DNA of 64,000 nt. Source: Kiritimatiellia bacterium (GTDB taxonomy: Bacteria > Verrucomicrobiota > Kiritimatiellia > CAIVKH01). Numbering within the stretch: the first letter of the stretch is position 1; the number at the start of each line of letters is the position of its first letter. The notes below the pieces were generated by a model. It did not search any database. It was not told where the DNA came from and worked only from the letters and a program-made list of their open reading frames with translations. The DNA lies in contig JAOSKE010000002.1 in NCBI GenBank assembly GCA_027493775.1, positions 407,435 through 471,434 on the forward strand, in the 5' to 3' direction. Below, piece after piece: positions 2,806 to 61,940 of this stretch. The position numbers and the translations under genes were made by a program.

Positions 2806-3993
2806 CTATTGTTTGCTATAGGCCAGCACAAACCCGGCATAAAACGCGCACGCGCGGGTCAAATGCTCAATCTCGACACACTCATTCGGGGCGTGCGCCA
2901 TGTGTTCATGCCCGGGCCCGAACCCAATGGTCGGAATGTTGTGCATCCCCGCGCTGGCGACGCCGTTTGTGCTGAAGACCCAGTGGCCGACAATCGGCTT
3001 CTCATCGAACACCGCCTGATACGCCTCGCGCGCCTTCTTCACTTCGAGCGTGGATTCCGGCATCTCCCAGGTTGGGAAATACTTCTTCGTCGGATAGGTC
3101 AACCCCGTGTAGCTCGGCGTTGCATAATCAAGCACGCGCACAACCGCCTTCGCCTTCTTCACCGAAGGCAGCGCCTTGATCTGATTCACGGCAATCTTTT
3201 CCGTTTCGCCCACGGTCAAGCGGCGATCCAAATGGATGGCGCATCCGTCCGCGACCGCGCACAAACTCGGCGAGCGCGAACGGATGTGACTGATCGTCAC
3301 GGTGCCCTTGCCCAACGGCTTTTTCGGCTTGAGGCGCGCGTTCAACTTTTCGATATCCGCAATAATCGGCGCCATCTTATAGATCGCGTTCACGCCGCGT
3401 TCGGGCGCGGAGCCGTGGCAGGAAATTCCCGTCGTCTCCACTTCGATTTCCATGCGGCCACGGTGCCCGCGATAAATGCGCAGACTCGTCGGCTCGGTGA
3501 TGACAACCACGTTGGGACGTAGTTTCTCTTCCTTCACCAAATACTGCCAGCACAGCCCGTCACAGTCCTCCTCCTGCACCGTCGCCGTGATAAAGAGCGA
3601 TACATTCTTCGGGAAGCCCATCTTCTTCAAAAGCGCGCCCGCGTAAATTGCCGATGCCACACCGCCCTTCATGTCGCTTGTGCCGCGTCCATACAAACAT
3701 CCATTTTTTACAATCGGCTTGAACGGGTCGGTTTTCCATGCCTTGAGGTCGCCCACATCCACGGTGTCAATGTGCCCGTCAATAGCGATTTGAACCGGCC
3801 CCTTCCCGATTCGCCCGATGACGTTCCCCATCTTGTCCACGCGCACGGAATCGTAGCCGAGCTTCTTCATTTCATCTGCGATGCGGCGCGCAACGCGCCC
3901 CTCCTCGCTACTCAGCGATTTGATTGAGATGATGTCCTTCATGAATTTCAGAAGGCGCGATTCCATTGCCCGACTTGCTGCCAGTATGCTCAT
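2806..3993 (-). CDS. ygeY: YgeY-family M20 peptidase/hydrolase (selenium-metabolism-linked hydrolase family)
   Basis: 395 aa with M20 metallopeptidase motifs (GHIDTV, GRGTSDMKGG, ITEPT). Lies 5 nt downstream of the TrpB-like gene on the same strand. Confidence 0.8.
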   Translation of the reverse strand: MSILAASRAMESRLLKFMKDIISIKSLSSEEGRVARRIADEMKKLGYDSVRVDKMGNVIGRIGKGPVQIAIDGHIDTVDVGDLKAWKTDPFKPIVKNGCLYGRGTSDMKGGVASAIYAGALLKKMGFPKNVSLFITATVQEEDCDGLCWQYLVKEEKLRPNVVVITEPTSLRIYRGHRGRMEIEVETTGISCHGSAPERGVNAIYKMAPIIADIEKLNARLKPKKPLGKGTVTISHIRSRSPSLCAVADGCAIHLDRRLTVGETEKIAVNQIKALPSVKKAKAVVRVLDYATPSYTGLTYPTKKYFPTWEMPESTLEVKKAREAYQAVFDEKPIVGHWVFSTNGVASAGMHNIPTIGFGPGHEHMAHAPNECVEIEHLTRACAFYAGFVLAYSKQ

Positions 3994-3998
3994 GACCT

Positions 3999-5487
3999 TT
4001 ACTCCATGTTTTTCAGTACGCCTGTTGCCTCATTGAATTCCGTGATCCGCCGATCCCATTCGGCGATCCGTTCCTCCGCAAAAATGTCCCGCCAGAACGA
4101 CTCGTCCCACAGCCTCCGCAAGTCTTCCACGTCCCGGCCCTGCTGTTCGACCCAGGTGAAGTATTTGAACTGATGCAACGCCTTCCGTTCCTGATAATTC
4201 AGCTCGCGGAAAAGAGATGTTGTGTGTCCATCGAGATAGGTCGCCGCCACGGAGATCGCATCGCGAGCGCTGAACCGGCCACGCGCCTCCGTCATTTCTT
4301 CGAGGCGCGATCCGTAAAGCTCCATCGAATCCGTAAGCGGAATAAACAGAACGTCATTGCGGTCCATCTCGTAATATTCGGCGGTCTTTACCGCTGCGAC
4401 CAAATTGCAGATTCCGGAAATGCCTGCGAGATCGAGCGATTCAATCGTTGCTTCTGGCACTCCGCTTGCCGCGAGCAAATTTTTTCCCTCTATCTCGTTA
4501 AACAACCGCATGAGCTGCATGACCGCCTCGTCATCCACCGCGGCCACCGCATCGGTATTGCGGACGTTGTGAACCCACGGAACATGCTTGTCCCCGATTC
4601 CCTCGATTCGGTGTGCGCCGAATCCAAACTGGTACAGCGTCGGACACTGTAACGCCTCCGCCGCAACGACACGCAGCTGTGGATATTTTGTCCGCAAATA
4701 ATCGCCCGCCGCAATGGTGCCCGCCGATCCCGTTGCGCTGATAAATCCCGCAAGCCGCGAAGAAGGCCCACGGATCTGATTTTCGTACACCTCGCTGATC
4801 AGCGAACCGGTGACGTGATAATGCCACATCGCGTTTCCAAACTCTTCTGAACTGATTGAAAATCACGATGTCATCGCCGCGCGTGCGGCGTAGCTCCCAG
4901 CACTTGTCGTAAATCTCTTTTACGTTCGACTCCGTGCCCGGCGTCGCAATGATCTCGTCCGTCCCGATCTCGCGCAACCAGTTGAATCGCTCCTGACTCA
5001 TTCCCTCCGGCAGAATCGCAATGGCGGGACAGCCCAGCAGCGCACAGTCGTACGCGCCGCCCCGACAATAGTTGCCGGTGGATGGCCACACGGCCTTTTG
5101 CCGGGTCGGATCGAACTGCCCCGAGACCAGACGCGGCACGAGACATCCATAGGCTGCGCCCACTTTATGGGCGCCCGTCGGAAACCACTTTCCGACAATG
5201 CCCACGATTCGAGCGTCCACCCCCGTCAGCGCCGAGGGAAACTCAATCCAGTTCCCTTCTCCGAATCCGCCTCCGCGCGGCTTCGGCTCGTTCTTCCATG
5301 TGATGCGAAACAAATTCAGCGGATTCACATCCCACAATCCGATGGAGGAAAGTTTTGTCTTAATCGCGGCGGGGATTTGGGAAGGATCCATTTGCTGCGC
5401 GATGGTCGGCAAAATTACATGCCGCTCTCGCGCACGACCAATCGCCCGTTGCAATACGCTCTCTTCCGCCATCAATCCCGTAGTCAT
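3999..5487 (-). CDS. TrpB-like PLP-dependent enzyme (tryptophan synthase beta superfamily); frameshifted near 4848
   Basis: N-terminal ORF 4531-5487 has the PLP-lysine motif FPTGAHKVG and ends ...DIVIFNQF. C-terminal ORF 3999-4829 continues in another frame (EEFGNAMWHYHVTGSL...). A 1-nt indel at about 4848 restores one ~495-aa protein. Confidence 0.75.
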
Positions 5488-5653
5488 CGAACACCCCGCT
5501 GGTTCTTTCCGCTAAAGCGTCGCGCCGACTTCGTCATCAAACAACGGAATAACAGCCTCCGGCGCCCTGATTAGCCCATCGGTAAAACCCTGATCCCTCA
5601 AAAGAGGTTCTTCCCCGATTGCGATTCACAAGGAATTACGCAACCATTCCAAC

Positions 5654-5887
5654 ATGGAAATCAGGTTGGAATATGTCGCAATGCTGAAGACCAACGCGCC
5701 GCCGAGCGGGAGCGTAATGACCGTTCAAGAGGGCATCACGATTGCAGCGCTCTTGGAACAAATCGGAATCCCTGAAAAGCAACGCGGCGTGATCACGCCG
5801 TTTGTGAACACAGCAAAAGTCAGTCAGAACCACGCGCTCCAAAACGACGACCGTGTCTTCCTCGCAATGCCGATCGGTGGCGGGTAA
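5654..5887 (+). CDS. MoaD/ThiS-family ubiquitin-like sulfur-carrier protein
   Basis: 77-aa ORF ending ...AMPIGGG-stop (C-terminal Gly-Gly typical of MoaD/ThiS). Convergent with the xanthine dehydrogenase-like gene, divergent from the TrpB-like/ygeY operon. Confidence 0.7.
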   Translation: MEIRLEYVAMLKTNAPPSGSVMTVQEGITIAALLEQIGIPEKQRGVITPFVNTAKVSQNHALQNDDRVFLAMPIGGG

Positions 5888-6005
5888 GAGCTATTTTGCC
5901 CCGCGAACAACTCGCAACCGCCTCCGCAATTTGCGGGAAGCGGCAGGACAGGCGTCGGCAAAGCATTCGCGCTTATTCGATGTCGTCCGCTGCGTCGGCC
6001 CTCTT

Positions 6006-8330
6006 GTTATCCGCCCTCGCGTTCTTGAATCGCTTTCCAAATGGCATTCGGCATGAACGGAGAGCTGCGCATACGAACGCCCACGGCATTGTAGATGGCG
6101 TTGGCGATGCAGGGGAGCGGGCCGTTGATGCAAATTTCGGAAACGCTCTTTGCGCCGTACGGGCCACTCTTTTTCGTAGCTGGGGACCAGAATGGTCTTC
6201 AGCGCCGGCTTGTCCCGCATGGACATGATCTTGTAGTGCGCGAAGGATGGATTGAGCATCCGCCCGCGTGAACTGAAGCGATACTGCTCCGTCAACGCAT
6301 AGCTGATTCCGTTCAACACGCCGCCCTCGGTCTGGCCCTCGGCCAGCTTCGGGTTCACTGCCGTGCCGCAATCCACCGCTGCGACATAGCGCAGGACGCG
6401 CACCCTGCCGGTCAACGTGTCCACCTCCACTTCGCAGAAATGTGCGGAGAAAGGCGGCGGCGACTTGTGCGTGATATGCGAGGAAATCGCGCCAATTTGG
6501 AACTGGTCCGACCCATAGAGCGAGCGCAGCGCGATTTCCGGAGAACGTGACGGATTTTCCATCCGGCCCAAACGCGCAGTTGTCGCGCAGATCGATTTCC
6601 TTGGGTTTGCATTCCATCATCGCGGCGCCAACACCAGCGATTTGTTTGGCAACTTTTTCGGCGACGTTCTTCACCGCCATTCCGCTGAGATACGTCGTGC
6701 TGGAGGCATACGCGCCAACATCGAACGGGGTTGTGTCCGTGTCCGACGAATAGACGATGAGCTTGTCCACATCGCAGCCGACTGTTTCTGCAGCGATTTG
6801 CGCAAGAATGGTATCGCTCCCCGTCCCGATGTCCGTCGCGCCGACCAGCAAATTGAATGACCCGTCGTCATTCATCTTCATCGTTGCCGCGCCCATATCA
6901 ATTTCGGGGATGCTGGATCCCTGCATCAGCGACGCCATTCCGATGCCGCGACGGAAGCGCCCTTTTTTGTCCTGCCAGCGCCCGCGCTTTTTCCAACCGA
7001 TCTCGCGTGCGCCGAGCTTCATGCACTTCTCCATTTCGCAACTGCCGATGGACTGTTCGACGCCCGCCTTTCCTTCTCCCAGCGCCCGGAAAACCGGCGA
7101 TGTTTCACCCGAGCGAATCGTGTTCATCCGGCGGAACTCCAGCGGGTCCATGCCGAGCATCTCCGCCAGCTCATCCATCATGCAATCAATGCCGAACGTG
7201 GATTGCGTCGCGCCATACCCGCGATACGCTCCGCCGACCGGCAGGTTGGTGTATGCGGATTCGCCGACAAAGTGGATGGTTTTGCTGCGGTACAGCGGAA
7301 GAATTTTGCTGCCGCTATTGCACACCACCGTCAGCGCGTGCGCACCGTACGCCCCCGAGTTTGTGCAGCAATCCAACGCAAGCGCACTGATTGATCCATC
7401 CTTTTTCACGCCGGCACGAATACGCATTTTCTCGGGATGTCGCGTCCGGCTGGAAACAAACTCTTCCTCGCGCGTGTATTTCCAATGCACGGCCCGACCG
7501 GTACGCAACGCGAACATGGCAACCACCGGCTCCAGCAGCACCTCCTGCTTTCCTCCGAAGCCGCCTCCGATGCGGGGTTTCACAACGCGAATCCTGCGCA
7601 CCGGGATCTGAAGCACCTGCGCAACGATGCGGCGGACATGGAACGGCACCTGTGTGCTCGTTGTGACAATCACGCGACCATCTACATCAAGATGCGCGGT
7701 CACGATATGCGGTTCAATCGGACAGTGATGCGCATAGTCCGTGTAAAACTCCCGATCAAGCATCGTGTCCGCCGCCTTCAATTCGGCCTCGACATCCCCC
7801 ACGTCCATTGCGACCCGCGCGGCGAGATTCCGCTGCGGTTCGTATGGAACCGGAATCGGGACATGCGCCTCCGGCTCGTCGTGGATCACAGGCGCACCGG
7901 GCTTGAGCGCGTCATCAATCGTGAATACGGCGGGCAGTTCCTCGTACACCACCTTGATCGCCTTCACTGCTGCGGCAGCCTGTTCCGGCGTATCCGCGGC
8001 AACTGCGGCGACGCGATCACCAACGAAGCGCACTTTATTGTCAAACAGGAAGGAATCGTATGGCGAGGGCTCGGGAAAACCCTGTCCCGCAGTCGTGTGA
8101 ACCACACGCGGAACATTGCCGTGATGCAGGATGCAATGCACCCCCGGCATCTTCTCCGCCTCGCTTACATCAATGGATACAATCCGCGCGTGCGCATGGG
8201 GACTCCACAGCGCCTTCACATACAAGGAGTCGGCGGGCTTCAAATCCGCGACAAACATCGGCTTGCCGGTGGCAAGCGAGAGGGAGTCAATTTTCCGGAC
8301 GGACTTTGCGACAACATTAAATTTCTTCAT
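6006..8330 (-). CDS. xanthine dehydrogenase family molybdopterin-binding subunit (XdhD-like); two frameshifts (~6540 and ~6166)
   Basis: N-terminal 600 aa read in the frame of ORF 5973-8330 up to ...GPDGKSVTFS. The middle (FCEVEVDTLTGRVRVL...GQTEGG...ILVPSYEKE) is in the frame of ORF 5891-6571. The true C-terminus GPYGAKSVSEICINGPLPCIANAIYNAVGVRMRSSPF...EREGG-stop at 6006 is in the third frame. Confidence 0.8.
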
Positions 8331-8788
8331 GACCGCGCCTCCGAAGCAAGTTTGCGTAACGCCGATTCAATCTTCTGATAACCCGTACACCGACACAACT
8401 GGCCGTCCAGCGCGACAGCCAGCTCCTCTTCGGTGGGCGATGGATTTTTGTCAAACAGCGCCTTCGCCGCGAGAATGACTCCAGGCATGCAATACCCGCA
8501 CTGAATCGCGCCCTCCTCCACGAGCGCGTCCTGAATGGGATGCGGATGATCCAACGAACCGATCGCCTCCACCGTTTCCACCGTCCGCCCGTTCACCTGC
8601 CCGGCGTAGGTAAGACAGGAATTAATGAGGCGGCCGTCCACATTCACCGCACACGACCCGCACGCGCCTTCGTTGCACCCAATCTTTACGCTGGCGCAAC
8701 CAAGTTCCCGCAACAGGTCCGCGAGTTTGGTGTTGGCCTCAACTTCCGCCGTTCGCAATTTTCCATTGAGCGTGAATTGAATATTCAT
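8327..8788 (-). CDS. (2Fe-2S)-binding subunit of xanthine dehydrogenase-family enzyme
   Basis: Cys motifs CNEGACGSCAV and CGYCMPG...CRCTGY. Start at ATG 8788 (MNIQFTL) preceded by GGAGGAAGG; the stop overlaps the Mo-subunit start. Confidence 0.85.
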   Translation of the reverse strand: MNIQFTLNGKLRTAEVEANTKLADLLRELGCASVKIGCNEGACGSCAVNVDGRLINSCLTYAGQVNGRTVETVEAIGSLDHPHPIQDALVEEGAIQCGYCMPGVILAAKALFDKNPSPTEEELAVALDGQLCRCTGYQKIESALRKLASEARS

Positions 8789-8790
8789 AA

Positions 8791-9631
8791 TTACCTTCCT
8801 CCCGCCATCCCGCACGCCTCTAAAATCGCATCGGGCAAATGTGCGCGCGCCAGTTGTTTGATGTACTCACTGCTGTATCCGCGATCCCCTTTCCAGGAAA
8901 CACCGGCCAGATGCGCTTCCACGGCGGCGGCGATGTCCGCCTCTGCGCATTTTTTTCCCGACAAGCTCCGCCTCCAATGCCGAGAGTCGGCAAGGCAGCG
9001 GGACGCCCGCTCCAACCGCGACCCGTGCATCCCGAATCGTCCGGCCTTCGCGGCGAATCCATGCCGCAATGGTGAGGTGGCTGAAGTCCATATTAACAAG
9101 GCTCTCCTTGTGATAGCCAAAGCCGGACCCCTCTCCGATTTCCGGAACGGATATTTCAGTGAGCAGGTCGCCCGGCTGAAATAGACGACTCGGTTGACCA
9201 TCGAAAAAGACCGACGCCAGATGCGAGGTTTTTGCCTCGCCCGAAATGGTCATCGTTGCGTTCAGCGCAAGCAGCGCGACAGGAAAATCATTCCACGGAA
9301 AAACGCGGCTGATGTTTCCGCCGATGGTCGTCATATTTCGTAGCGGCTGACTCACAAAGCGAAGCGCGACGCGATCCAGCACCCAGCCCGGAGCGTGAAA
9401 CGCCTGCAAATCCGCAATTCGCGTATTTGCGCCGACCACAAAATGTCCATTTTTGCACTCAACACCTTCGAATCCGATATCGGCAATGTCCACACCGATT
9501 TTTTCGTCATCATTCTTAACAAATGAATGCGACGACGCGCCCGCAAGCGGCATCGCCGTCGGGCCAAGCTCCTTCAACAGTCGGCGCGCATCCGCCAGTG
9601 ATTTCGCGCGGTGATAGGCAGTCAGTTTCAT
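8791..9631 (-). CDS. FAD-binding subunit of xanthine dehydrogenase-family enzyme (YgfM-like); frameshifted in A7/T7 run 8950-8956
   Basis: ORF 8867-9631 (MKLTAYHRAKS...LPCRLSALEAELVGKK) plus the C-terminus in another frame (AEADIAAAVEAHLAGVSWKGDRGYSSEYIKQLA, part of ORF 8791-9201). The junction is at the T7 run. Confidence 0.75.
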
Positions 9632-11004
9632 ATTTGACCTCCAGCTTTCTTCAACATCATATCCGTCAACTCGTTCGCCCTATGAAAGAGACGCTGCTCA
9701 TCCGTGCCGATCAACTCGCCGCCGGCCACGCGAATGACGCCATTAACGATCGTATAATCCGCGCGCGCACCCGCGCCGCAGAACAGGATGGCGGACGCGG
9801 GATCCGTCATCGCGCCCGCGTATTCAATCCGATCCAGTCGAAACAAGGCGATATCCGCAAGCGCCCCCGGCGCAATACGTCCAATCTCCGGCCATCCGAA
9901 CACCTCTGCGCCCCCGCGCGTCGCCATGTGCAGCACACGACTCGACGGCATCGCGTCAACCGCCGTTCCAACGCGATGCGCCAGCAGCGCCATTTGCATT
10001 TCGCGGCTGAAACTGGAACTATCATTGCTGGCGGAGCCGTCCACTCCGAGCGCAACGCGAACACCCGCCTCCATCATGCGCGGAATCGGCGCAATTCCCG
10101 ACCCCAGCCGCAGATTGGACGACGGACAGTGCGCGATTCCGGTTTTCGTCGCCGCGAGTTTCTGTATTTCACCGTCATTAAAATAGATGCCGTGCGCAAA
10201 CCAGACATCGGGACCCAGCCACTCGTTCTCCTCCATGTATTCGATCGGTCGCTGTCCGAACATCTCGCGGCAGTAATTCTCCTCATCCACGGTCTCGCAC
10301 AAATGCGTGTGACAGATGACGCGATGTGCACGGGCAAAGCGGATTGTCTCCCGTAACAACTCCGTCGTAACCGAAAACGGCGAACACGGCGCGAGGGCCA
10401 GTCGACACATCGAATCCGGCTCGGGGTTGTGGTATTTTGCGATCAACCGGTCACAATCCGCGATGATTTCCTCGTGATGCTGCACCACGTCATCGGGCGG
10501 AAGTCCGCCATGTGATTTGCCCCGGCTCATGCTGCCGCGTGTGGGATGGAAGCGAATGCCCATCGCGCGCGCGGTTTCAATTTCCACATCCACCAATTCC
10601 CGCGTCACACCACGCGGGAAAACGTAAAAGTGATCCGAGGTGGTTGTGCAGCCGGACAACAACAGCTCGCCGATCCCGACACGCGCGCTGATATCCACCG
10701 CCTCCGGCGTAAGCCAGCGCCAGATTTCGTAAAGATTTGTCAGCCAGTCGAACAGTTTCGCGTTTTGAACGGCCGGAATGTTGCGCGTCAGTGTCTGATA
10801 AAGATGGTGGTGCGTATTGATGAAACCGGGGTAGAGCACATGGTTGCTCGCATCAATCACCGACGCGCCGGGTGGCGCGTCGAGCGACGGCTTAATCGCG
10901 GCGATTCGATTGCCCTCCACAAGCACATCCACGTCATGCACAGGCTGCTCGCCATCCACCATGCTGACGAGGGTCTGCACCCGTTTTAGAAGGATGGCAC
11001 TCAA
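9628..11004 (-). CDS. amidohydrolase-family deaminase (8-oxoguanine/guanine deaminase-like)
   Basis: Metal-binding motif GFINTHHHLYQT and typical amidohydrolase C-terminal half. Start is ambiguous: TTG at 11004 (after GGGGGAG) or GTG at 11019; the ORF track ATG at 11112 overlaps the upstream gene. Confidence 0.75.
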   Translation of the reverse strand: MSAILLKRVQTLVSMVDGEQPVHDVDVLVEGNRIAAIKPSLDAPPGASVIDASNHVLYPGFINTHHHLYQTLTRNIPAVQNAKLFDWLTNLYEIWRWLTPEAVDISARVGIGELLLSGCTTTSDHFYVFPRGVTRELVDVEIETARAMGIRFHPTRGSMSRGKSHGGLPPDDVVQHHEEIIADCDRLIAKYHNPEPDSMCRLALAPCSPFSVTTELLRETIRFARAHRVICHTHLCETVDEENYCREMFGQRPIEYMEENEWLGPDVWFAHGIYFNDGEIQKLAATKTGIAHCPSSNLRLGSGIAPIPRMMEAGVRVALGVDGSASNDSSSFSREMQMALLAHRVGTAVDAMPSSRVLHMATRGGAEVFGWPEIGRIAPGALADIALFRLDRIEYAGAMTDPASAILFCGAGARADYTIVNGVIRVAGGELIGTDEQRLFHRANELTDMMLKKAGGQI

Positions 11005-12316
11005 TGGATTCTCCCCCACAACGCACGCGCGCGCTCGTTTGCCTTTCTTCGTATTCCGGCTTCGTCGAGATGCGAAATGACGCCGTTTTCCAGCAACACG
11101 CGACCACGGCAAATCGTTGTCGTCACCGGCGCGGCGACTAGGCCGAACAAGAGGTGACCGTAAAATGTGGAGGAGTTGAAGGGGGTGAACGGGCGATAAT
11201 CAAAGATTGCGATGTCCGCCAGACACCCCGGCGCAAGACGTCCGCGCGGCTCCGGGAAAATACGGTCGCAAATCGCGCGGTTATTTTCCAACAACAGCCG
11301 ACACGCCTCAACAAATGCCACGCGCGGGTCGCGACGGATTGCGCGTTGCGCGAGATACGCCGCGCGCGCCTGTGCGATCAATTGGTTGGACATGCCATCC
11401 GTTCCTAGACCAAGCAGGATCCCATCGCGCAGAATTTCGAGCAACGGCGTCATCCTAAGTCCGTTGTTCATATTCGACTCGGGATTCGTCGCCATCATGC
11501 TGTCCGATTCGGCGAGCATCTTCCGGCCGCGCTCGTCCAGATGAATTCCGTGCGCGAAGATGGATTTCGGCCCGACAATGCCCGCGCGCTGGAAGCGATC
11601 AATCGGGAGCGCGCCAAATTCGCGCAGCGACGCTTCTCCATCGCACTCCGCCTCATCAATATGCACATGAAAGCCCGTGTCCAGCGCCTGGCCTTCCGCC
11701 GCACAGCGCTCCAGCGTGTCGGGGCTGAGTGTCATGGATGCGTGCAGGCCGAACAGCGGTTGTATCTGAGGGTTCTTCGCCGTCCGGCATTTCTTAATGA
11801 ACCGGATATTCTCCGCGACCCCTCCCCCTTCTTGTTGCGGTCTGACACTTCGTAGCAAAGGCAGCCATTCAATCCGGCCTCACGGAACGCGCGCTCGACT
11901 ATGTCAAGGCTTCCATCCGCGCAGGCGGGCGAGGCATGATGATCAATAATCGTTGTGCATCCGGCATGAATCGCCTCCACGCAGGGAAGAATGGACGAGT
12001 AATAGACATCCTCCGCGTCCAACGCGGCGTCGAGTTTCCACCAGAGCCGTTCGAGTATTTCCTGAAAGTTTTTCGCCGGCTCGCCCGGCGGCGAGAAGCC
12101 GCGCGCCAGGGTTGAATACAGGTGATGATGCGCATTAATCAGGCCGGGCATGACAATGCGGCCTTCCGCATCAATCGTGCGATCCACTCTTTCCGTCGCC
12201 ACACGACCGACGGCGAGAATTTTCGTGTCTTCCACGAGAATGGAGCCGTTTTCAATGATGGCCCCCGCGTCATCGAGCGTCACCAATGTTCCGTTTTGTA
12301 TTAATATGCGGCTCAT
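11001..12316 (-). CDS. ssnA: SsnA-like amidohydrolase; frameshifted in C-run 11819-11828
   Basis: N-terminal ORF 11732-12316 (MSRILIQNGTLVTLDD...GLINAHHHLYSTLARG) and C-terminal ORF 11001-11858 are in different frames; the junction ...EVSDRNKKGEG/VAENIRFIKKC lies in a C4/C5 run. Confidence 0.75.
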
Positions 12317-12317
12317 T

Positions 12318-15300
12318 TTATGAATTCTCCATCAGGGGTATAAACGGAACCGATCCGCGCAGACCATTTAGCAACGCCATCATCTCCACCACCGGGCGCA
12401 GCGAAACGCGCTCGCAATCCGGCGCATTGGGCTTGGCGGTGATGGAAAGCAACTCCCAGCCCACGGACCAAACGGCATCCAGTTCAGGGCTCGAATAATC
12501 AATCCGGCCATTCAGCGACAGGGTGTGCGTTCGACCCGCGATACGCGAGTGAATGGCCGCGCCATCAGCCAATCGCTCCAAGAGAAACGCATTGTTCGAC
12601 TCGCGCTCCCATTCATCGCGCCGCGAGTAGATGCGCGGCTTGTCTTTGTACGGTTTCCCAGCGGAAGGGCAAAACGTGACGCAGTTTCCGCACTCGTTGC
12701 ACAGATCGGCAAACACCGCAACCTGGTAGCGCTGCGTGATTTTGATCGTTTCTCCGTCGAGCGCGAACCAGCGGCTATCCTTAATCCGACCCAACGGCAG
12801 TGTCTTGCAGATCGGCGCGTGCTCGTAGGTGAACAATGCAAGGTTGGGGCATACGCCGACGCAGTAGCTGCACAACAGGTCGCAATCGAGACAGCGCGAC
12901 GCCTCCTCCTTTGCGATCCGTTGACTCAACGTGTTGACAACCTCGTCGAAATCGCGGCGATCTTTCGGCGCCCGCTCCGGCGCCTTCACGGCAAATTTCC
13001 GGGTCACTCTGCGACGCTGAAATTCCGCGCGATTCACAAACAACGCGGACTCCTTTTGCCCGTCCGCAGCGCGCCCCTCAAACTTCGCGCGAATCGCGCG
13101 CGCGATTCTCTTGCCGTCGCCCAACGCCTTCACAATCGTCGCCGGCCCGCTGCCGACCGCGTCGCCGCCCGCATACACGCCCGGTGCGCTGGTTTCCAAG
13201 GTCACTGAATCAACCTGCACGTAGCCGTTCTTGTTCAGCGCGACCCCCGCCTTTTGCAGCCACTCGAAATCACCGGCCTGACTGATTGCGACAATCAGCG
13301 TGTCCATCCCGAACGTTTCCGTTTCATCGCCTTTGGGCGATGGACGACGACGCCCGCTTGCATCCGGCTCGCCCAGCTCCATAACGCGACAAACCAAGCC
13401 GGTGAGATGGCCGTTTTCAGTGAGAATTTTTGCGGCGCACGCAATTCACGAATCGGAATGCCCTCCTCCAATACGCCCCGCAATTCATCGCGCTGTGCGG
13501 GCATTTCTTTGAGGGTGCGGCGATAAATAATGTTCACGCTCTCCGCGCCAAGCCGCCATGCGGCGCGTGCGCAGTCCATCGCGACATCGCCGCCGCCAAT
13601 GACCCCGACGCGGCGTCCGATTTTGGGACGACGCCCTTCGCGCGACTCGCGGAGAAATGAAAGCGAATCCCAAACACCCGGCGCATCCTCATCTTCCAGA
13701 CCAAGCCGCCCCGCGCGCTGCGCGCCGATGGCGACAAGGACTGCCGCGTATCCTTCGCGCTGCAAATCCGACAACTGGAAATCAACACCAGCTCGCTGCT
13801 TGTGCCGGACTTCGACGCCGCGTTGCTGCAAGAACGCCAGATCGCGCTGCAACGCGTCGTCGGATGAGCGATAGCCGGGAATTGAGGAGGCAACCATTCC
13901 CCCCTTGCGATCACTCGCATCGAAGATCGTCACGGGATAACCGGCGCGCGAGAGAAAATCCGCCGCGCCCAAGCCGCATGGCCCCGCCCCAACAATTGCG
14001 ATCCGCTCTCTCTTCTTCGGCTCGACAGCCGTTTGACTCTGCGCGTAGTCAACGATGAATCGCTTGATCTCGCGTATCGCGAGCGGCTCGTCCAAGTGCG
14101 AGCGAACACAGCGCATTTGGCAGGGATGGTGACACGCGCGGCCCAAAACAGACGGCATGGTGTTGTCGCGGCACACAATCGCGACGGCCTCATCCAAGCG
14201 GCTTCCTGCGACCGCGCGCATATACTCCGGCACACCCTGCTCAATCGGACACACCTCAACGCAGGGCGCTTTGATGCAGTCGAAAAGACCAAGCGGCCGG
14301 AGCGACTTTGTATCGGTTCGATCAAACGTCTCCTCACGATACAATCTGCTATCCAACACCTCCGCCGCGTAGCGCCTCAAATTGGCCTGCGCCGCCACAA
14401 TTCGATGATCGTTCCCTGCGGTCTTGCGGACAAATTCATCCGGCGAGTGCGCCTGCGCGGACTTCATCGCCGCCGCGAGATGCTGAACGTACTGCGCGAG
14501 TCGGCCATAGCCGCCGGAGCGGAGCAAATCCGAACAGACGGTGACGGTCCTCATGCCGCACTGCATCAACGACGCGATATTGAAGGCGTCCGCGCCGCCC
14601 GCAAATGAGACATCCACTTCGCCGCCGAACGCCTCTTGCAGGCGGAGCGCGGCGTGAACCGTCACAGCATGCAGCGGGCGGCCGGACATGTACATCTGCT
14701 TTTCTTTGGCGTCAAACGTCCGGCGGTGATTGATGACTTCCAGCGTATTCGACAGCTTCACTCCGAAGGACAAGCCCTGCGCCGCAGCGACGGCGCGGAG
14801 TTCACGGATCAGTTCCACGGCGTTATCAAAAGTGATGTCGTGCTCGAACGCCGCGTCCGGAACCGTGATGTCGTCGAAGCCGAGCTGATCATTCAAAATT
14901 GCGCGCAGCCGTTCCGGGCCAAGTAGCGTGGGGTTCAACTTGACGTAGGTGTGAAGCCGCTTCTTTTCGAGCAAATAGCGGCTGATTGCGCCGATTTCGC
15001 CAGGCGGACAACCGTGCATGGTCGAGAGGGTGACATTGTTGGAAACTCGACTGGGAACAGGCACGTCACCGATGTCGGGAAATATCCTGGAGAGTGTTTC
15101 TTTTCCCTTTTGGACCAAATCAGAGGCGTTCTCCATCGCGTCGAAGAAGCCCTGCACGTTCGGCTTGAGGATTCCCTCCATGTTGTAGCCGACGCTCATG
15201 TTGAAGACGGCGCCCGGCTGGTCGCCTTCCAACCCCAATACGCGATGCAGATAATGCGTCAGCAGCCAAGCGTTCACGTATTCCTGAATAGACTCGCGCA

Positions 15301-15649
15301 CGCGCAACTCTTGCGACCACTCCACATTGTAACCCGCGTCCTCCATATCAATGCACGGTTTACTGACCTCCAGCTCGTCCAGCGTTTGGATCGTCTTCAG
15401 TTCGATGAACCGTGCGCCGCACAGCCAGGCCGCAACGATGTTCTGCGCCATTTGCGTATGCGGCCCCGCAGCGACACCGATGGGCGTGAACAGCGTCTGT
15501 CCGAAAACGGAGGTGCGGAACGGGTCGGAAGCGCGCGGCTCGTAAAACAACTCACGATGGATTCCAAAAATGGATTGATTCGCCGCCATCTCATCGCGCA
15601 CCCATCCCGCAAGACGGCCCAACGATAGAGGAAACATTCGATCACTCAT
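12318..15649 (-). CDS. ygfK: YgfK-like putative selenate reductase subunit (FAD/NAD-binding plus Fe-S domains); frameshifted at T5 run 13427-13431
   Basis: ORF 13295-15715 carries Cys clusters and GXGXXG motifs (IAIVGAGPCGLGAA, VGVIGGGDVAMD). The C-terminal 360 aa (ORF 12318-13397, LVCRVMELGEPDASGRRRP...) is in another frame. Start taken at MSDRMFPL (15649), immediately after the sdaA stop. Confidence 0.75.
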
Positions 15650-16917
15650 GAAACACTCCCTTCCGTCGCCGCGACGACCGGCGCGGCTTGCGTTGACGCG
15701 GCTCGTTTGCGCCACACTGCGGCAAGGCCGCCGCGCGCGGTTTCCCGATAGGCGCTTTGCAGATCAAGCCCGGTGCGGTACATCACCTCGACCACATCAT
15801 CGAAACTCACGCGGTGCCGCCCATCCGTCAGCAGCGAAAACGATGCGCACTCAAACGCGCGAAGGCAGGCGGCCATGTTCCGCTCGATGCAGGGAATTTG
15901 CACGTAGCCTTCCACCGGGTCACAGGTCAATCCGAGGTGGTGCTCCATTCCGATTTCAGCGGCGTATTCAATTTGATGCGGCGAGCCGCCAAGCAGTTGT
16001 GAACACGCCGCAGCGGCCATGGAGCAGGCGGAACCGATTTCGCCCTGGCACCCCACTTCAGCGCCGGACACGGAGGCGTTTGCGCGGATGACTGACCCGA
16101 ACAAACCCGCAGTCGCCAATGCGCCCAGGATTTCCTGAAGAGGCGTCTTTTTAACCGTCGCAAAATAGTACAGCAACCCCGCGACCACTCCGGCGGGGCC
16201 GCAGGTCGGCGCGGTGACAATCGTTCCGGCGCTTGCGTTTTCTTCCGCGACCGCCAGGGCAAAGGAGGACAGAAACGCGAGATCGCGCCGCGTGCCCTGC
16301 AGGGATTGCGCCCGCTCCCAGGTGGTTCCTGCCTGGCGCGAGAGGTTCAGCGAACCGGGCAGAAGCTTGTCCGTGCTCTTCAACCCGCGCTCAACACTGT
16401 CGCGCATAGCGGCCCAAATCGGGATCAGCCTGTTCCATACATCCGGCTCATGCAGTTCGACGAATTGCCGGAACGAGCTGTTGTTTTTTTCGCACCAGTC
16501 GAGCGCGTCCGCGAGATTGGAAATGGGATAGGTGACGACCTCTCCCGTATTGACCGGCCCGCTGTCGTCGCGCAACGAACCGCCACCAATGCTGTACACG
16601 CGCCATTCATCTGAAATAAATCCCAGCGCATTGATCGCTTGCCAGATCATCGTGTTCGGGTGAACCGGAGTTGGCGACACGGCGTCCCACACGATTTCGC
16701 AAGCGATCGGATATAGCGCGGCGATAATCGTTCTATCCGTCAGATGTCCGCGTCCCGTCTCCGCAAGACTGCCCTGCAGGGTCACGCGCACGCAGGCGGG
16801 AGGGGTTGTCTGGCGGTCGAGAAGTATGCGCGCGGCACGCTGCGGCCCAATGCTGTGCGAGCTGGATGGACCCGCGCCAACTTTGAACGTCTCAAAAATG
16901 GATTCCACGACCGGCAT
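15646..16917 (-). CDS. sdaA: L-serine dehydratase, iron-sulfur-dependent, single chain
   Basis: Motifs FKVGAGPSSSHSIGP, YSIGGG, ANASVSGAEVGCQGEIGSACSMAAA and GMEHHLGLTCDPV...VQIPCIERN match the L-serine dehydratase family. First gene of the seven-gene minus-strand operon. Confidence 0.8.
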   Translation of the reverse strand: MPVVESIFETFKVGAGPSSSHSIGPQRAARILLDRQTTPPACVRVTLQGSLAETGRGHLTDRTIIAALYPIACEIVWDAVSPTPVHPNTMIWQAINALGFISDEWRVYSIGGGSLRDDSGPVNTGEVVTYPISNLADALDWCEKNNSSFRQFVELHEPDVWNRLIPIWAAMRDSVERGLKSTDKLLPGSLNLSRQAGTTWERAQSLQGTRRDLAFLSSFALAVAEENASAGTIVTAPTCGPAGVVAGLLYYFATVKKTPLQEILGALATAGLFGSVIRANASVSGAEVGCQGEIGSACSMAAAACSQLLGGSPHQIEYAAEIGMEHHLGLTCDPVEGYVQIPCIERNMAACLRAFECASFSLLTDGRHRVSFDDVVEVMYRTGLDLQSAYRETARGGLAAVWRKRAASTQAAPVVAATEGSVS

Positions 16918-16996
16918 GGCGACTTTCCGATTTTGCTTCCACCAATCAGTCTAGGTTTTCGTTGCGCGATGGACAGCGTTATGTCGCCCAGCAACG

Positions 16997-17014
16997 CCTG
17001 ATGCTCGCATCAGG
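16997..17014. promoter_or_regulatory. perfect 18-bp palindrome in the divergent sdaA/ygeW promoter region
   Basis: CCTGATGC-TC-GCATCAGG with 8-bp arms, in the 178-bp intergenic region between the two divergent island operons. Confidence 0.4.
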
Positions 17015-17095
17015 GGAACCCTGATTGAAGCAAAACGGACAACGCTGAATACTTCGCGCAGTGGTTTGGAACGTGTTGTGTGACCGTCCGAAAAA

Positions 17096-18319
17096 ATGCG
17101 TGACTACTGGTCGCGCGGAAAGGGACAAGTGAATACGCTGAATTCAATTATCGCCGACTTGCGCAAACGCCCCGCATCTCTTCACGGAAAAGATTTTCTC
17201 CTAACGTGGGATCGCTCGCTCGATGAATTAAAGTTGATCCTCGGCCTTGCCGAAGCCCTGCGATTGATGCGCAAGCAGGGAATCTCAACGCGAGTGTTTG
17301 ACTCGGGTCTGGCGGTCTCGAATTTTCGCGACAACTCAACACGCACGCGCTTCTCGTTTGCCTCCGCCTCAAATCTTCTCGGGCTTTCCGTTCAGGACCT
17401 CGACGAAGGAAAATCACAAATCGCGCACGGCGAAACCGTCCGCGAAACGGCGACCATGATTTCCTTCCTCACGGAAACCATCGGCATTCGCGACGACATG
17501 TTTCTCGGCGCGGGTCACACCTACATGCTGGAGGTGGCGGAGGCGCTCGATGAAAGTTTCCGCGAGGGTGTATTGCCGCAACGTCCGGGCATTGTGAATT
17601 TGCAGTGCGATGTGGATCATCCGACGCAGTCCATGGCGGATTTGCTCTGGCTCGAAAAGCAATTTGGATCGCTCGACAACCTGCGCGGAAAAAAGATCGC
17701 GATGACGTGGGCGTATTCGCCGAGCTATGGAAAGCCGCTGTCGGTCCCGCAGGGCATCATCGGTTTGATGAGCCGCTTCGGGATGAATGTGGCGCTCGCG
17801 CATCCAAAGGGATACGACCTGATTCCTGAAGTCGTCGAGCGATCGGCGCGGCAGGCGAAAGAGTCTGGCGGCTCGTTCACCCACACGCATTCAATGGAGG
17901 AGGCGTTCGAGGGCGCGGACATTGTCTATCCGAAATCCTGGGCGTCTTATTCCGTCATGGAAAAGCGCACCGGGCTGTTGCGGAACAACGATCACGCCGG
18001 GCTGAAGGAATTGGAAAAGGCGTGCCTAGCGGAAAACGCTGCGCATACGAATTGGGAATGCTCGCCGGACAAGATGAAGCGCACAAAAGATGGCGACGCT
18101 CTTTATATGCACTGCCTGCCGGCGGACATCACGGGCGTTTCCTGCAAACAGGGCGAAGTGGCGGCCGACGTGTTCGAGAAATATCGCCTGCGCACGTATC
18201 ACGAAGCGGGCGGAAAGCCGTTCATCATCGCAGCCATGATTCTGGCCAACCGCTTTGCCGACCCCGTCGGCATGCTGGAGGAATTGCTCAAAAAGAACAA
18301 ATCGCGCGTCGGCGCGTAA
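17096..18319 (+). CDS. ygeW: YgeW-type knotted carbamoyltransferase
   Basis: 407 aa with the carbamoyltransferase signature NSTRTR and HPTQ; length and overall pattern fit YgeW rather than OTC or ATCase. Confidence 0.8.
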   Translation: MRDYWSRGKGQVNTLNSIIADLRKRPASLHGKDFLLTWDRSLDELKLILGLAEALRLMRKQGISTRVFDSGLAVSNFRDNSTRTRFSFASASNLLGLSVQDLDEGKSQIAHGETVRETATMISFLTETIGIRDDMFLGAGHTYMLEVAEALDESFREGVLPQRPGIVNLQCDVDHPTQSMADLLWLEKQFGSLDNLRGKKIAMTWAYSPSYGKPLSVPQGIIGLMSRFGMNVALAHPKGYDLIPEVVERSARQAKESGGSFTHTHSMEEAFEGADIVYPKSWASYSVMEKRTGLLRNNDHAGLKELEKACLAENAAHTNWECSPDKMKRTKDGDALYMHCLPADITGVSCKQGEVAADVFEKYRLRTYHEAGGKPFIIAAMILANRFADPVGMLEELLKKNKSRVGA

Positions 18320-18326
18320 GGAGAGT

Positions 18327-19286
18327 ATGACAGCGTCCGCAAAGCGGAAGAAGCTCGCGATTATCGCGATCGGCGGCAACTCGCTGATCAGCGACAGCCG
18401 CAGCATGTCGGTTCCGGATCAATACCGGGCCGCAGGCGAGACAAGCCGCCATATTTCCGCGCTTGTTAAGCTGGGCTACCGGGTGGTGGTCACCCACGGC
18501 AACGGGCCGCAGGTCGGCTTCATCCTTTTGCGCTCCGAGCTTGCCAAGGACAAACTGCACTCGGTCCCGCTCGAAAGTTGCGTCGCGGACACACAGGGCG
18601 CGATCGGTTATCAAATTCAGCAAACGCTCAAGAACGAGTTGCACCGACTGGGAATCGTACAGCCCGTCGGAACGCTGGTTACCCAGTGCGTCGTCAGCGC
18701 AAATGACCCGGCCTTCAAAAATCCGACCAAACCCATCGGCCCCTTCTATACGGAAGAGGAAGCGCGTGCCCATGAGGTGAAGGACGGCTGGACGGTGCGC
18801 GAAGACGCCGGGCGCGGGTGGCGTCGTGTGGTGCCCTCCCCCGTCCCGCGCGAGATCGTGGAGGAACCCATTATCAAGGTGTTGCTGGAACGGGATGTCA
18901 TTGTCGTCGCCGTCGGCGGCGGCGGCATCCCGGTGACACGCACAAGGAGCGGACGCCTCAAGGGTTGCGCGGCGGTGATTGACAAGGATGCCGCATCAAG
19001 CCTGCTTGCGCAAAATTTGAAGGCGGATGTTTTGATCATCTCAACCGCGGTCAATCACGTCTATGTGAACTTCGGAAAACCGGATCAGCGGCCGATTTAT
19101 TACATGTCTCTCAAGGAAGCGGAAGGTCACGTCAAAGATGGACAATTCTCCGCGGGAAGCATGTTGCCCAAAATCGAGGCGGCGATCCGCTATCTAAAAG
19201 CCGGAGGAAAGAAGGTCATCATCACACAACCGCACCTCATCGAGAGTTCGGTTGTTGGAAAGGGAGGAACACACATCACGCCATGA
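18327..19286 (+). CDS. arcC: carbamate kinase
   Basis: MTASAKRKKLAIIAIGGN...VVTHGNGPQVG...; ATG 18327 preceded by AAGGAGAG. The stop overlaps the next start (ATGA). Confidence 0.85.
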   Translation: MTASAKRKKLAIIAIGGNSLISDSRSMSVPDQYRAAGETSRHISALVKLGYRVVVTHGNGPQVGFILLRSELAKDKLHSVPLESCVADTQGAIGYQIQQTLKNELHRLGIVQPVGTLVTQCVVSANDPAFKNPTKPIGPFYTEEEARAHEVKDGWTVREDAGRGWRRVVPSPVPREIVEEPIIKVLLERDVIVVAVGGGGIPVTRTRSGRLKGCAAVIDKDAASSLLAQNLKADVLIISTAVNHVYVNFGKPDQRPIYYMSLKEAEGHVKDGQFSAGSMLPKIEAAIRYLKAGGKKVIITQPHLIESSVVGKGGTHITP

Positions 19287-20536
19287 ATACGACATCCACA
19301 TCTCACGTCAGCGGTTTCCGCTGCCTTCGTTGCGGCGCCGAGCAGCCGAAATCATTCGACGGAATGCTCTGCCCCCTCTGTGAATACAATCTCGACGTTG
19401 AATACAACTACGCCGCGATTGATCCGCACAACTGGATGAATGAGCGCGACGATTTGTTCCGCTACTCCGCGCTGCTGCCCGTCAGCAACTTGGGCCTGAC
19501 GCCGGTTCAGCGCGTCGGACAAACTCCGCTCTATCACGCCGCACGCGCAGGAAAAGCACGCGGCCTGAGTCAGCTTTATGTCAAAGACGACGGCATGAAC
19601 CCCAGCGCATCGTTCAAAGACCGCGCGGGCGCGGTGGCGCTGGTCGTCGCGCGCGAGCGCAACGCGAGCGTGATTGCCGCATCCACCACGGGCAATGCGG
19701 GCAGCTCCATGGCGGCCTTGACCGCAGGCGTAGGATTTCCGTGCGTCATTTTCGTCCCCGCGACCGCGCCCGCCGCCAAGATCGCGCAGCTTCTCGTCTT
19801 CGGTGCAAAAGTAATCGCGGTGCAGGGCACCTACGACCAGGCGTACGACCTTTGCGAAACGGCGTGCGAGGAGATGGGCTGGTTCAATCGCAATACGGGC
19901 TTCAACCCCTTCACACGCGAGGGAAAAAAAACCTGCTCGTTTGAAATCTGGGAGCAGTTGGGCGGACAGGCGCCGGATCACCTGTTGGTAGGATCGGGCG
20001 ATGGAAACATCATCAGCGGAATTTGGAAGGGCTTCCGCGACCTGCTCGCGCTCGGCCTGATCAAGAAAATGCCCGCGCTCTACAGTTGCCAATCCGAAAA
20101 AAGCGCGGCCATTGCCACCGCCGTTCGCGCCGTTCAAGACCGCTCCGCAGTGGACTGGAAGGCGCTGAAACTGCCGACGGTGAAATCGGAAACCCTTGCG
20201 GACTCCATTTCGGTGGACTACCCAAGCGACGGCATTGCAGCCATGCGCGCGATGTTTGAAACCGGCGGCGACGCAATTACGGTTTCCGAAGATGAAATTC
20301 TACGCGCCATCCCCGACCTTGCCCAATCCACCGGCGTCTTCGCCGAACCCGCCGCCACCGCCTGCTGGGCGGCATTGGACAAACTCTTAACAATGAAGAC
20401 CATCGCCCACGACGAAAAGGTCGTTTGCGTCATCACGGGCAACGGCCTGAAAGATGTCGCCAGCGCCAGAAAAACCGTGGGCCAGCCGATCACCGTGGAG
20501 CCGACGATAGAGGCCGTGATGGCGGCGATTACCTAG
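19283..20536 (+). CDS. threonine synthase-family PLP-dependent enzyme with N-terminal zinc ribbon
   Basis: N-terminal CxxC...CxxC (CLRCGAEQ...CPLCEY) and the PLP-lysine motif SFKDRAG typical of threonine synthase-like enzymes. Confidence 0.75.
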   Translation: MNTTSTSHVSGFRCLRCGAEQPKSFDGMLCPLCEYNLDVEYNYAAIDPHNWMNERDDLFRYSALLPVSNLGLTPVQRVGQTPLYHAARAGKARGLSQLYVKDDGMNPSASFKDRAGAVALVVARERNASVIAASTTGNAGSSMAALTAGVGFPCVIFVPATAPAAKIAQLLVFGAKVIAVQGTYDQAYDLCETACEEMGWFNRNTGFNPFTREGKKTCSFEIWEQLGGQAPDHLLVGSGDGNIISGIWKGFRDLLALGLIKKMPALYSCQSEKSAAIATAVRAVQDRSAVDWKALKLPTVKSETLADSISVDYPSDGIAAMRAMFETGGDAITVSEDEILRAIPDLAQSTGVFAEPAATACWAALDKLLTMKTIAHDEKVVCVITGNGLKDVASARKTVGQPITVEPTIEAVMAAIT

Positions 20537-36667: not shown

Positions 36668-36744
36668 TGGCGGGAGCGACGGGACTCGAACCCGCAACCT
36701 CTGCCGTGACAGGGCAGCGCTCTAACCAGTTGAGCTACGCCCCC
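36668..36744 (-). tRNA. tRNA-Asp (anticodon GTC)
   Basis: Reverse complement GGGGGCGTAGCTCAACTGGTTAGAGCGCTGCCCTGTCACGGCAGAGGTTGCGGGTTCGAGTCCCGTCGCTCCCGCCA folds as a cloverleaf: 7-bp acceptor stem, anticodon loop CUGUCAC (GUC), T-loop TTCGAGT, encoded CCA. Confidence 0.9.
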
Positions 36745-58809: not shown

Positions 58810-58983
58810 GCGGATGCGATACAGCGCGGCGAAGATTTAGGCAATATGAAAAGAGAATCGCCTTCTTTTCGCCTTTTAGACCCGGACAGCGACAGGTCGG
58901 CACGGGCAGGGCATGCCATGTCCCTACGAATCATAACGGGAATCTAACGTGACGTTTCTGCTGGCGTGGCGCACAACTTCGGC

Positions 58984-61936: not shown

Positions 61937-61940
61937 AAAT

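Follow-up and report, generated by a model that had tools for sequence, protein, structure and literature searches.

Anaerobic degradation of urate by way of 2,8-dioxopurine was not solved until 2025, in gut bacteria. In the pathway of Escherichia coli, the molybdenum (Mo) enzyme XdhD-YgfM reduces urate to 2,8-dioxopurine, reduction by YgfK and ring opening by SsnA yield ureidomethylhydantoin, HyuA turns the latter into 2,3-diureidopropionate, YgeW and YgeY then strip off both ureido groups, and YgeX splits 2,3-diaminopropionate into pyruvate and ammonia (Li et al., Life Metab 2025, PMC12507026). The same pathway was found by Liu et al. (bioRxiv 10.1101/2025.04.24.650524), with pyruvate, ammonia and ATP as overall products; YgeW together with carbamate kinase yields the ATP, and the clostridial Mo enzyme depends on selenium. 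The chemistry rests on in-vitro reconstitution in both papers, and the two groups disagree on which of the ureido groups YgeW takes off (PMC12507026; bioRxiv 10.1101/2025.04.24.650524). Here we consider an island of 13 genes at positions 2806 to 20536 of a stretch of 64,000 nucleotides (the window, in what follows) from a Kiritimatiellia bacterium of the Planctomycetes–Verrucomicrobia–Chlamydiae (PVC) group. We propose, with a probability of about 0.7, that these genes specify a variant form of anaerobic, reductive urate breakdown in which a pair of pyridoxal 5′-phosphate (PLP) enzymes takes the step of YgeX, and that the frameshifts that break several of its genes are sequencing errors.

A first-pass annotation, made from the letters of the DNA, had likened the island to the ygeW-ygeY-yqeA and ygfK-ssnA-ygfM-xdhD loci of E. 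coli, and protein identities (tblastn) establish that this likeness is one of homology: 34–39% for YgfK and 28–43% for SsnA, whose weaker segment accounts for the lower figure, with the values for YgeW, YgeY, YqeA and XdhD in Table 1. It had also held that the substrate and pathway of the E. coli genes were still unknown, which is out of date since the work summarized above, and it had invoked oxidation of a purine or another heterocycle; the Mo enzyme of the E. coli pathway reduces urate instead.

Scores against NCBIfam and Pfam profiles were judged by curated cut-offs, split genes being scored on intact copies; such copies, found in other assemblies, are the basis of all protein work reported here. 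Nine of the 13 genes pass a curated family cut-off, those for YgeY, YgfK, SsnA, YgeW, carbamate kinase, L-serine dehydratase, 8-oxoguanine deaminase, a ThiS/MoaD-like protein and, only nominally, threonine synthase. The YgfK, SsnA, YgeW and YgeY families, on which the first-pass annotation had staked its comparison, are thus all matched above cut-off, and the neighbourhood is co-conserved, as described below. On the YgeW gene, ornithine carbamoyltransferase models score far below the YgeW model.

The island shares with the E. coli cluster YgfK, SsnA, YgeW, YgeY, carbamate kinase and a Mo enzyme, probably of the XdhD type, with its flavin adenine dinucleotide (FAD) subunit, and in both a purine deaminase adjoins. 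As the first-pass annotation had stated, the arrangement differs. The iron–sulfur (Fe-S) domain of XdhD is a separate gene here, and the deaminase is of the 8-oxoguanine type whereas that of E. coli is GuaD. The island is without HyuA and YgeX, the window without yqeB, yqeC and mocA, and four genes are added: those for a CysK-like PLP enzyme that we call PALP494, a ThrC-like PLP enzyme, an Fe-S serine dehydratase and a ThiS-like small protein. With the clostridial clusters it has in common the succession of a Mo enzyme, a reductase and SsnA, followed by removal of the ureido groups. These clusters also swap single steps, Clostridioides difficile using UacX for YgfK and UacY for YgeW plus YqeA; what is swapped here, by contrast, is the last step (YgeX) and perhaps the hydantoinase. 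The Mo enzyme differs as well. The XdhAC of Clostridium sporogenes is a selenium-dependent 2,8-dioxopurine dehydrogenase; that of the island appears to be of the E. coli XdhD type. A fused Mo enzyme of clostridial type is found in relatives of the cluster in Woeseiaceae, Bacteroidales and Planctomycetes.

The three subunits of the Mo enzyme belong to the xanthine-dehydrogenase family and none reaches an equivalog cut-off. For the Mo subunit the top hidden Markov model (HMM) is XdhA_XDHase, with 671 bits against a cut-off of 780, and every other HMM score is below cut-off too. It is nevertheless closer to E. coli XdhD (40% identity) than to XdhA (34%), and it carries a short insertion, ALGEGKAG, that reads AIGEGKAP in XdhD, is not in XdhA, and includes the equivalent of Glu606, a residue of XdhD singled out for the orientation of urate (Li et al., PMC12507026). 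The 2Fe-2S subunit matches pucE, XdhC and glyceraldehyde-dehydrogenase gamma models about equally (approximately 148–151 bits, all below cut-off), and the FAD subunit gives weak matches of the XdhB and YgfM types.

By homology to characterised enzymes, the three-subunit Mo enzyme would reduce urate to 2,8-dioxopurine, which YgfK would in turn reduce and SsnA open to ureidomethylhydantoin. YgeW would transfer one ureido group onto phosphate, carbamate kinase would turn the carbamoyl phosphate into ATP, and YgeY would hydrolyse the other ureido group of the 2,3-diureidopropionate route, leaving 2,3-diaminopropionate. Family membership and gene position further suggest that the second amidohydrolase, of the 8-oxoguanine-deaminase family, supplies urate, and that PALP494 and the ThrC-like enzyme, in place of YgeX, would make pyruvate and ammonia from diaminopropionate or from ureido-alanine.

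This second amidohydrolase scores above the equivalog cut-off of 8-oxoguanine deaminase (NF006055) and matches over its full length two solved structures, PDB 3HPA (E = 9e-133), deposited just as 'amidohydrolase', and 7WW2 (E = 8e-127), named '8-oxoguanine deaminase'. Its setting differs from that of an enzyme of damage clean-up, being an anaerobic catabolic operon. Most likely, judging from its sequence, it is a feeder making urate from 8-oxoguanine or a similar 2-aminopurine. We also considered it as a replacement for HyuA. The two never co-occur in a locus. Their numbers are too low for this to carry any weight, however, and the family points to a deaminase; we keep this as a minor possibility.

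When the E. coli proteins were compared with the whole 64 kb by tblastn (E ≤ 1e-3 for HyuA), no homologue of HyuA, YgeX, YqeB, YqeC, MocA, XanQ or UacT was found. YgeX gave at most weak local matches, to the ThrC-like enzyme (25% over 206 residues) and to PALP494, and no diaminopropionate ammonia-lyase model was among the HMM matches listed. The hydantoin ring may be opened by a dihydropyrimidinase encoded elsewhere in the genome, or the step may be bypassed.

A pair of PLP enzymes beside the presumed urate genes

PALP494, which the first-pass annotation had called TrpB-like, is nearer to CysK and cystathionine β-synthase (CBS) than to TrpB. It has no curated family and no close solved relative; its best PDB matches are CysK, β-cyanoalanine synthase and CBS, at 18–27% identity. 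The CysK fold is kept, with additional helical domains at both the N- and the C-terminus, in an AlphaFold model (predicted local distance difference test, pLDDT, 81.8) the core of which is modelled confidently, and neither the PLP lysine, Lys108, nor the STGN loop varies among 19 homologues. Already labelled 'cysteine synthase' in sequence sources, the protein misses the cut-off for that function (98.7 bits with the cysK model, against 351). The best 120 database matches, several of them from Kiritimatiellia or Verrucomicrobia genomes, are 70–100% identical. In a scan of one genome per species the gene was present in at least 592 species; the 80 best genomes, with proteins 60–75% identical to that of the island, cover about ten phyla (among their members are Kiritimatiellia, Verrucomicrobiota, Planctomycetota, Woeseiaceae and other Gammaproteobacteria, Bacteroidales, Elusimicrobia, Chloroflexi and Myxococcota). 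Identity across phyla is 60–80%.

The ThrC-like enzyme passes the cut-off of the threonine synthase model TIGR00260 (Table 1) and fails that of NF006050 (246 against 303). Solved threonine synthases carry the motifs STGNT and NPxR(L/I)EGQKT. In 32 sequences of the ThrC-like subfamily taken from the loci compared below, these read STGNA and NPx(T/L)xEGKKT, so that the arginine, which we take to bind the substrate phosphate in threonine synthase, has become threonine or leucine. Because of these changes in motifs conserved among the solved enzymes, that of the arginine included, we do not think that this is a canonical threonine synthase, or that it makes threonine, despite its TIGR00260 score. 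An automatic label of 'threonine synthase' is likely, since the cut-off is passed; both this name and 'cysteine synthase' for PALP494 are probably wrong.

What ties these two enzymes to urate is the company they keep. Families were counted within 10 kb of PALP494 in the 80 best genomes of the scan, 44 of these loci being at least 15 kb long (L-numbers, such as L001, designate the genome or metagenome stretches compared with the window). The ThrC-like gene is near PALP494 in 39 loci. Four families, namely SsnA, the Mo subunit, YgeY and carbamoyltransferases, follow with 25 loci each, ahead of carbamate kinase (19), YgfK (17) and HyuA (seven). YgeX is near PALP494 in none of the 80. At least one pathway gene is present in 35 of the 44 long loci, and unsupervised clustering of all flanking open reading frames (ORFs) put the same families at the top. 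Of the 39 loci with both PALP494 and the ThrC-like gene, 24 have the two directly adjacent, in co-directional as well as divergent orientation. A second set, of 80 metagenome loci centred on SsnA, contains a PALP494-type gene (32–70% identity) eight times, YgeX once, and the two together never; the single YgeX match tells us that this search is able to detect it.

In related genomes, co-conservation of the neighbourhood was confirmed (L012, L014, L020). Two other species (L012 and L014), at 77–78% identity, retain the block YgfK-SsnA-amidohydrolase-FAD-FeS-Mo / ThiS / PALP494-YgeY. Different genes flank this block in L012, and L020 has a twelve-gene set of the island, serine dehydratase included, in another order. 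In Bacteroidales-type loci (L072, L082, L084, L094) most of the E. coli enzymes stand with PALP494 and the ThrC-like enzyme, without YgeX. L072 has all of them save YgeX and carbamate kinase, in the order YgfK-PALP494-ThrC-like-FeS-Mo-SsnA-HyuA, with YgeW and YgeY opposite. In Woeseiaceae the cluster is a compact one of ten genes, from which both HyuA and a second amidohydrolase are absent.

Several of the loci deserve a comment of their own. L027, L028, L041 and L098 (Woeseiaceae or related) read, on one strand, YgfK-SsnA-FAD-FeS/Mo-PALP494-YgeY-carbamoyltransferase-carbamate kinase-ThrC-like. They have no hydantoinase; their Mo enzyme belongs to the fused 'Se-dependent XDH' type, and the carbamoyltransferase falls below all family cut-offs. 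In L155 (11372–12652) and L159 (11332–12675) a shorter CysK-like protein of about 427 residues, 32–33% identical to PALP494, follows directly after SsnA, and the last step may thus exist in a third version; these clusters start with an 8-oxoguanine-deaminase-like gene, before FAD-FeS-Mo. L058 (15597–17884) and L075 have two carbamoyltransferase paralogues side by side, next to carbamate kinase and the ThrC-like gene, a pairing by which ATP would be gained from both ureido groups. In Chloroflexi (L090, L093, L095) carbamate kinase and the ThrC-like gene are separated by a Bmp/PnrA-type ABC transporter, of a family that we link to the uptake of nucleosides, and the ThrC-like gene and PALP494 by a GT2 glycosyltransferase. 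Finally, in Elusimicrobia (L049, L064, L069, L071, L076, L086) PALP494 stands in a different conserved context, where it is followed by a 216-residue protein with paired CxxC motifs and by a protein of about 360 residues, with no pathway gene within reach.

Two more genes accompany the pair in the window. The serine dehydratase is the first gene of the seven-gene minus-strand operon, and it adjoins the cluster in L014 and L020 too. The ThiS-like gene points towards the Mo gene and away from PALP494; its product ends in GGG, and the ending is GGG or SGG in three species. We examined whether it could be a general partner of PALP494, and ruled this out: small ORFs ending in Gly-Gly beside PALP494 are confined to loci of the Kiritimatiellia type. 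No adenylating partner of the MoeB/ThiF type was found among the window ORFs scanned, which are part of all its ORFs. The ThiS-like protein may help to make molybdopterin for the Mo enzyme encoded next to it. We sort both genes into lineage-specific additions, as distinct from the widely conserved pair formed by PALP494 and the ThrC-like enzyme.

Enzymes of the CysK family exchange the group borne by the side-chain carbon of their substrate through an aminoacrylate intermediate, and threonine synthase finishes its reaction by addition of water. Because of these two chemistries, a route leading from diaminopropionate or ureido-alanine to serine, and then to pyruvate, would fit the pair. If degradation goes through L-serine in this lineage, the operon's own serine dehydratase may finish it, and this would explain the presence of that gene at the operon head. 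From family and gene position, then, it is most likely that the pair takes over the YgeX step, possibly via serine. Alternatively, the pair may consist of a racemase and a lyase, or each of its members may deal with one of the two reported orders of ureido cleavage. A more specific proposal may be put forward tentatively, at somewhat less than even odds: the pair would be a two-enzyme ending of the pathway with a chemistry that is not that of YgeX (perhaps replacing side-chain nitrogen with water to give serine), and it would be the common form in anoxic habitats. It may also bypass the hydantoinase step, since most clusters of this type are without HyuA as well.

The alternative that survives best, unlikely as we deem it, is that all four added genes, those of the PLP pair, the ThiS-like protein and the serine dehydratase, serve ordinary amino-acid metabolism and just happen to lie beside urate genes, with YgeX and HyuA encoded elsewhere in the genome. 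We would then be dealing with a thiocarboxylate-dependent cysteine synthase in the manner of CysO/CysM, a threonine synthase and SdaA. CysO-CysM makes cysteine in this way in Mycobacterium tuberculosis, and a ThiS-fold protein with C-terminal Gly-Gly beside a CysK-family PLP enzyme is indeed what we see here, the GGG-ending protein being divergent from the CysK-like gene. The ThrC-like score above the TIGR00260 cut-off, the 23 of 80 PALP494 loci that have no pathway gene within reach, the different conserved context in Elusimicrobia and the unusual conservation of PALP494 all speak in the same direction. Against this, the association of the pair with SsnA, YgfK, YgeY, carbamoyltransferase and carbamate kinase withstands many rearrangements and recurs across unrelated phyla, and YgeX is never near it. 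Motifs that do not vary among solved threonine synthases are lost from the ThrC-like subfamily. PALP494 is far below the cysteine synthase cut-off, only distantly related to the best CysK/CBS structures, and has two extra domains; it accompanies purine-catabolic genes and has no ThiS-like partner outside one lineage.

Even so, a number of observations weigh against the urate pathway with a PLP pair that we prefer. HyuA and YgeX are both missing from the 64 kb, which leaves two pathway steps without a demonstrated enzyme here, and both PLP enzymes are unlike YgeX by HMM. That two enzymes should replace one is without explanation. While selD, yqeB and yqeC were present in all urate-degrading strains of one gut strain library (bioRxiv 10.1101/2025.04.24.650524), YqeB and YqeC have no match in the 64 kb, and selD was not seen either, no search having been aimed at it. 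Nine of the 44 long PALP494 loci have no pathway gene nearby, and the high conservation of PALP494 across phyla would also suit a housekeeping role. Lastly, because close relatives that share a sequence cluster with 8-oxoguanine deaminase use guanine analogues of other kinds, the substrate of the feeder reaction is uncertain.

The island appears to be the known pathway; the variant, with no YgeX, usually no HyuA, a PLP pair and a wide environmental spread, appears undescribed. A full-text literature search on the PLP pair in the urate pathway found nothing, and neither pathway paper mentions the pair or the environmental phyla (PMC12507026; bioRxiv 10.1101/2025.04.24.650524). The spread of the pathway in environmental anaerobes has probably been underestimated because of the way it was surveyed. 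One survey of metagenome-assembled genomes (MAGs) counted a genome as positive if it had at least four of seven clostridial enzymes, YgeX among them, and reported strong enrichment in Bacillota and in host-associated habitats; this criterion can miss the variant. Another survey, based on sequence networks, counted any PF00291 protein in the neighbourhood as YgeX, and so mislabels the variant's PLP enzymes. If the tentative proposal of a two-enzyme ending is right, anaerobic fermentation of urate and purines would extend to Kiritimatiellia, Planctomycetota, Woeseiaceae, Bacteroidales and others, and in sediments, groundwater and further anoxic settings the version with the PLP pair, not that of the gut, would be the usual one. 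Both enzymes of the pair are candidates for a new PLP chemistry acting on compounds of the diaminopropionate type.

Broken reading frames, and two weaker alternatives

Five genes of the island are split by single-base indels, a matter on which the first-pass annotation was silent. The window was compared with ten loci of independent short-read assemblies, which come from seven samples and are 99.7–99.9% identical to it. Over the first 14 kb, nine single-base indels (109, 559, 4848, 5998, 6170, 6538, 8950, 11818 and 13426) set it apart from every one of the ten. Six of them break island genes: insertions in PALP494 (4848), the Mo subunit (6170 and 6538) and the FAD subunit (8950, in a run of A), and deletions in SsnA (11818, in a run of G) and YgfK (13426, in a run of A). 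That at 5998 lies between genes, and two of the nine are in a gene for alpha-amylase that is not part of the island. In seven cases it is a homopolymer run, of at least three identical bases, that is lengthened or shortened. The ratio of indels to substitutions is 9 to 14–33 over the 14 kb. A further insertion, of two bases, is at 26523–26524.

All ten loci have the genes intact, with YgfK at 1110 residues, SsnA at 438, the amidohydrolase at 458, the FAD subunit at 279, the Fe-S subunit at 153, the Mo subunit at 773 and the PLP enzyme at 495; PALP494 is unbroken at this last length in L001 to L006. The protein sequences of YgeY and YgeW each recur identically on 23 other contigs.

Housekeeping genes further along the window are also broken. 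PurL (formylglycinamidine ribonucleotide, FGAM, synthase; 58966–62741, plus strand) is spread over four overlapping ORFs in different frames, holding respectively linker and AIRS, AIRS_C, AIRS_C and GATase_5, which implies at least three more frameshift errors. Between 48664 and 50344 (minus strand) an RpiB domain and the first half of serine hydroxymethyltransferase (SHMT) share one ORF, whereas the rest of SHMT is read in a different frame, as would be expected of an RpiB-GlyA fusion gene interrupted by a frameshift.

Since ten assemblies are intact at every site and PurL and SHMT are broken as well, we read the frameshifts as sequencing errors of the source assembly and not as gene decay. 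On the same two grounds we reject the idea that the ORFs are interrupted by programmed frameshifting or recoding, or are pseudogenes. It is improbable, in particular, that the cluster is decaying in the source strain, with real mutations in the five split genes and a non-functional pathway. The spread of the indels is admittedly uneven: nine of the ten events in the first, comparable 28.3 kb fall within the first 13.5 kb (our binomial estimate is about P = 0.007 against an even error rate), and six of them hit five island genes. Their preference for homopolymer runs, their occurrence in the alpha-amylase gene and between genes, the four frames of PurL and two of SHMT, the ten intact assemblies, and an indel-to-substitution ratio that seems far above natural divergence all point instead to errors.

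Very improbable, finally, is a conventional oxidative unit for purine salvage or catabolism, made of xanthine dehydrogenase, a guanine-type deaminase and a carbamoyltransferase and kinase like those of the arginine deiminase pathway, which could appeal to XdhA_XDHase as top model of the Mo subunit and to the guanine-analogue deaminase family of the second amidohydrolase, but is contradicted by the XdhA score under its cut-off, by the XdhD signature insertion and closer XdhD identity, by the equivalog scores of YgfK, SsnA, YgeW and YgeY, and by the YgeW model outscoring those of ornithine carbamoyltransferase.

Layout of the island and its surroundings

ORF listing and profile searches recover every gene of the first-pass annotation at essentially the same coordinates (Table 1). 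Its run of seven minus-strand genes is as tightly packed as described, with overlaps of four bases or gaps of one or two bases when intact copies are considered; its end is at 6007, not 6006. The genes of YgeW and carbamate kinase are adjacent.

Table 1. Genes of the island, with their positions in the window, strand and the evidence for their family
Gene product	Position	Strand	Evidence and remarks
YgeY, M20 hydrolase	2806-3993	-	NF009555, 561 bits (cut-off 321); 51% identity to E. coli YgeY
PALP494, CysK/CBS-like fold-type-II PLP enzyme, 495 aa	3999-5487	-	Pfam PALP only; split at 4848
ThiS/MoaD-like small protein	5654/5681-5887	+	Pfam ThiS PF02597, 23.9 bits (cut-off 22.5); weak
Mo subunit, probably XdhD-type, 773 aa intact	6007-8330	-	40% identity to XdhD; split at 6170 and 6538
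2Fe-2S subunit, 153 aa	8327-8788	-	Pfam Fer2, Fer2_2
FAD subunit, 279 aa intact	8791-9631	-	Pfam FAD_binding_5, CO_deh_flav_C; split at 8950
Second amidohydrolase, 8-oxoguanine-deaminase family, 458 aa	9628-11004	-	NF006055, 602 bits (cut-off 532)
SsnA amidohydrolase, 438 aa intact	11001-12316	-	NF005540, 480 bits (cut-off 444); split at 11818
YgfK Fe-S flavoprotein, 1110 aa intact	12318-15649	-	TIGR03315, 930 bits (cut-off 835); split at 13426
Fe-S L-serine dehydratase (L-serine ammonia-lyase)	15646-16917	-	TIGR00720, 368 bits (cut-off 345)
YgeW, knotted carbamoyltransferase	17096-18319	+	NF005538, 679 bits (cut-off 453); 68% identity to E. coli YgeW
Carbamate kinase, 319 aa	18327-19286	+	TIGR00746, 378 bits (cut-off 358); 48% identity to E. 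coli YqeA
ThrC-like PLP enzyme, N-terminal Cys-rich region	19283-20536	+	TIGR00260, 187 bits (cut-off 167)

Regulatory signals were looked for as well. An Rfam scan near the operons gave no riboswitch or known regulatory RNA, its sole match being a tRNA at 36671–36744, and scans for sigma-70 promoters and terminators between 2500 and 21900 were uninformative, promoter-like sites being fewer than in shuffled sequence. Directly 3′ of the ThrC-like gene, on the plus strand (20700–21743), lies a gene for a protein of 347 residues with a signal peptide and a C-terminal phenylalanine, as in outer-membrane proteins; it has no Pfam or NCBIfam family and no homologue among 80 related loci. The remainder of the 64-kb window is made of housekeeping genes. 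Among its genes, on the minus strand, two of the aspartate/ornithine carbamoyltransferase family stand in tandem (56770–57708 and 57718–58809); they are distinct from YgeW, and are probably of the argF and pyrB types.

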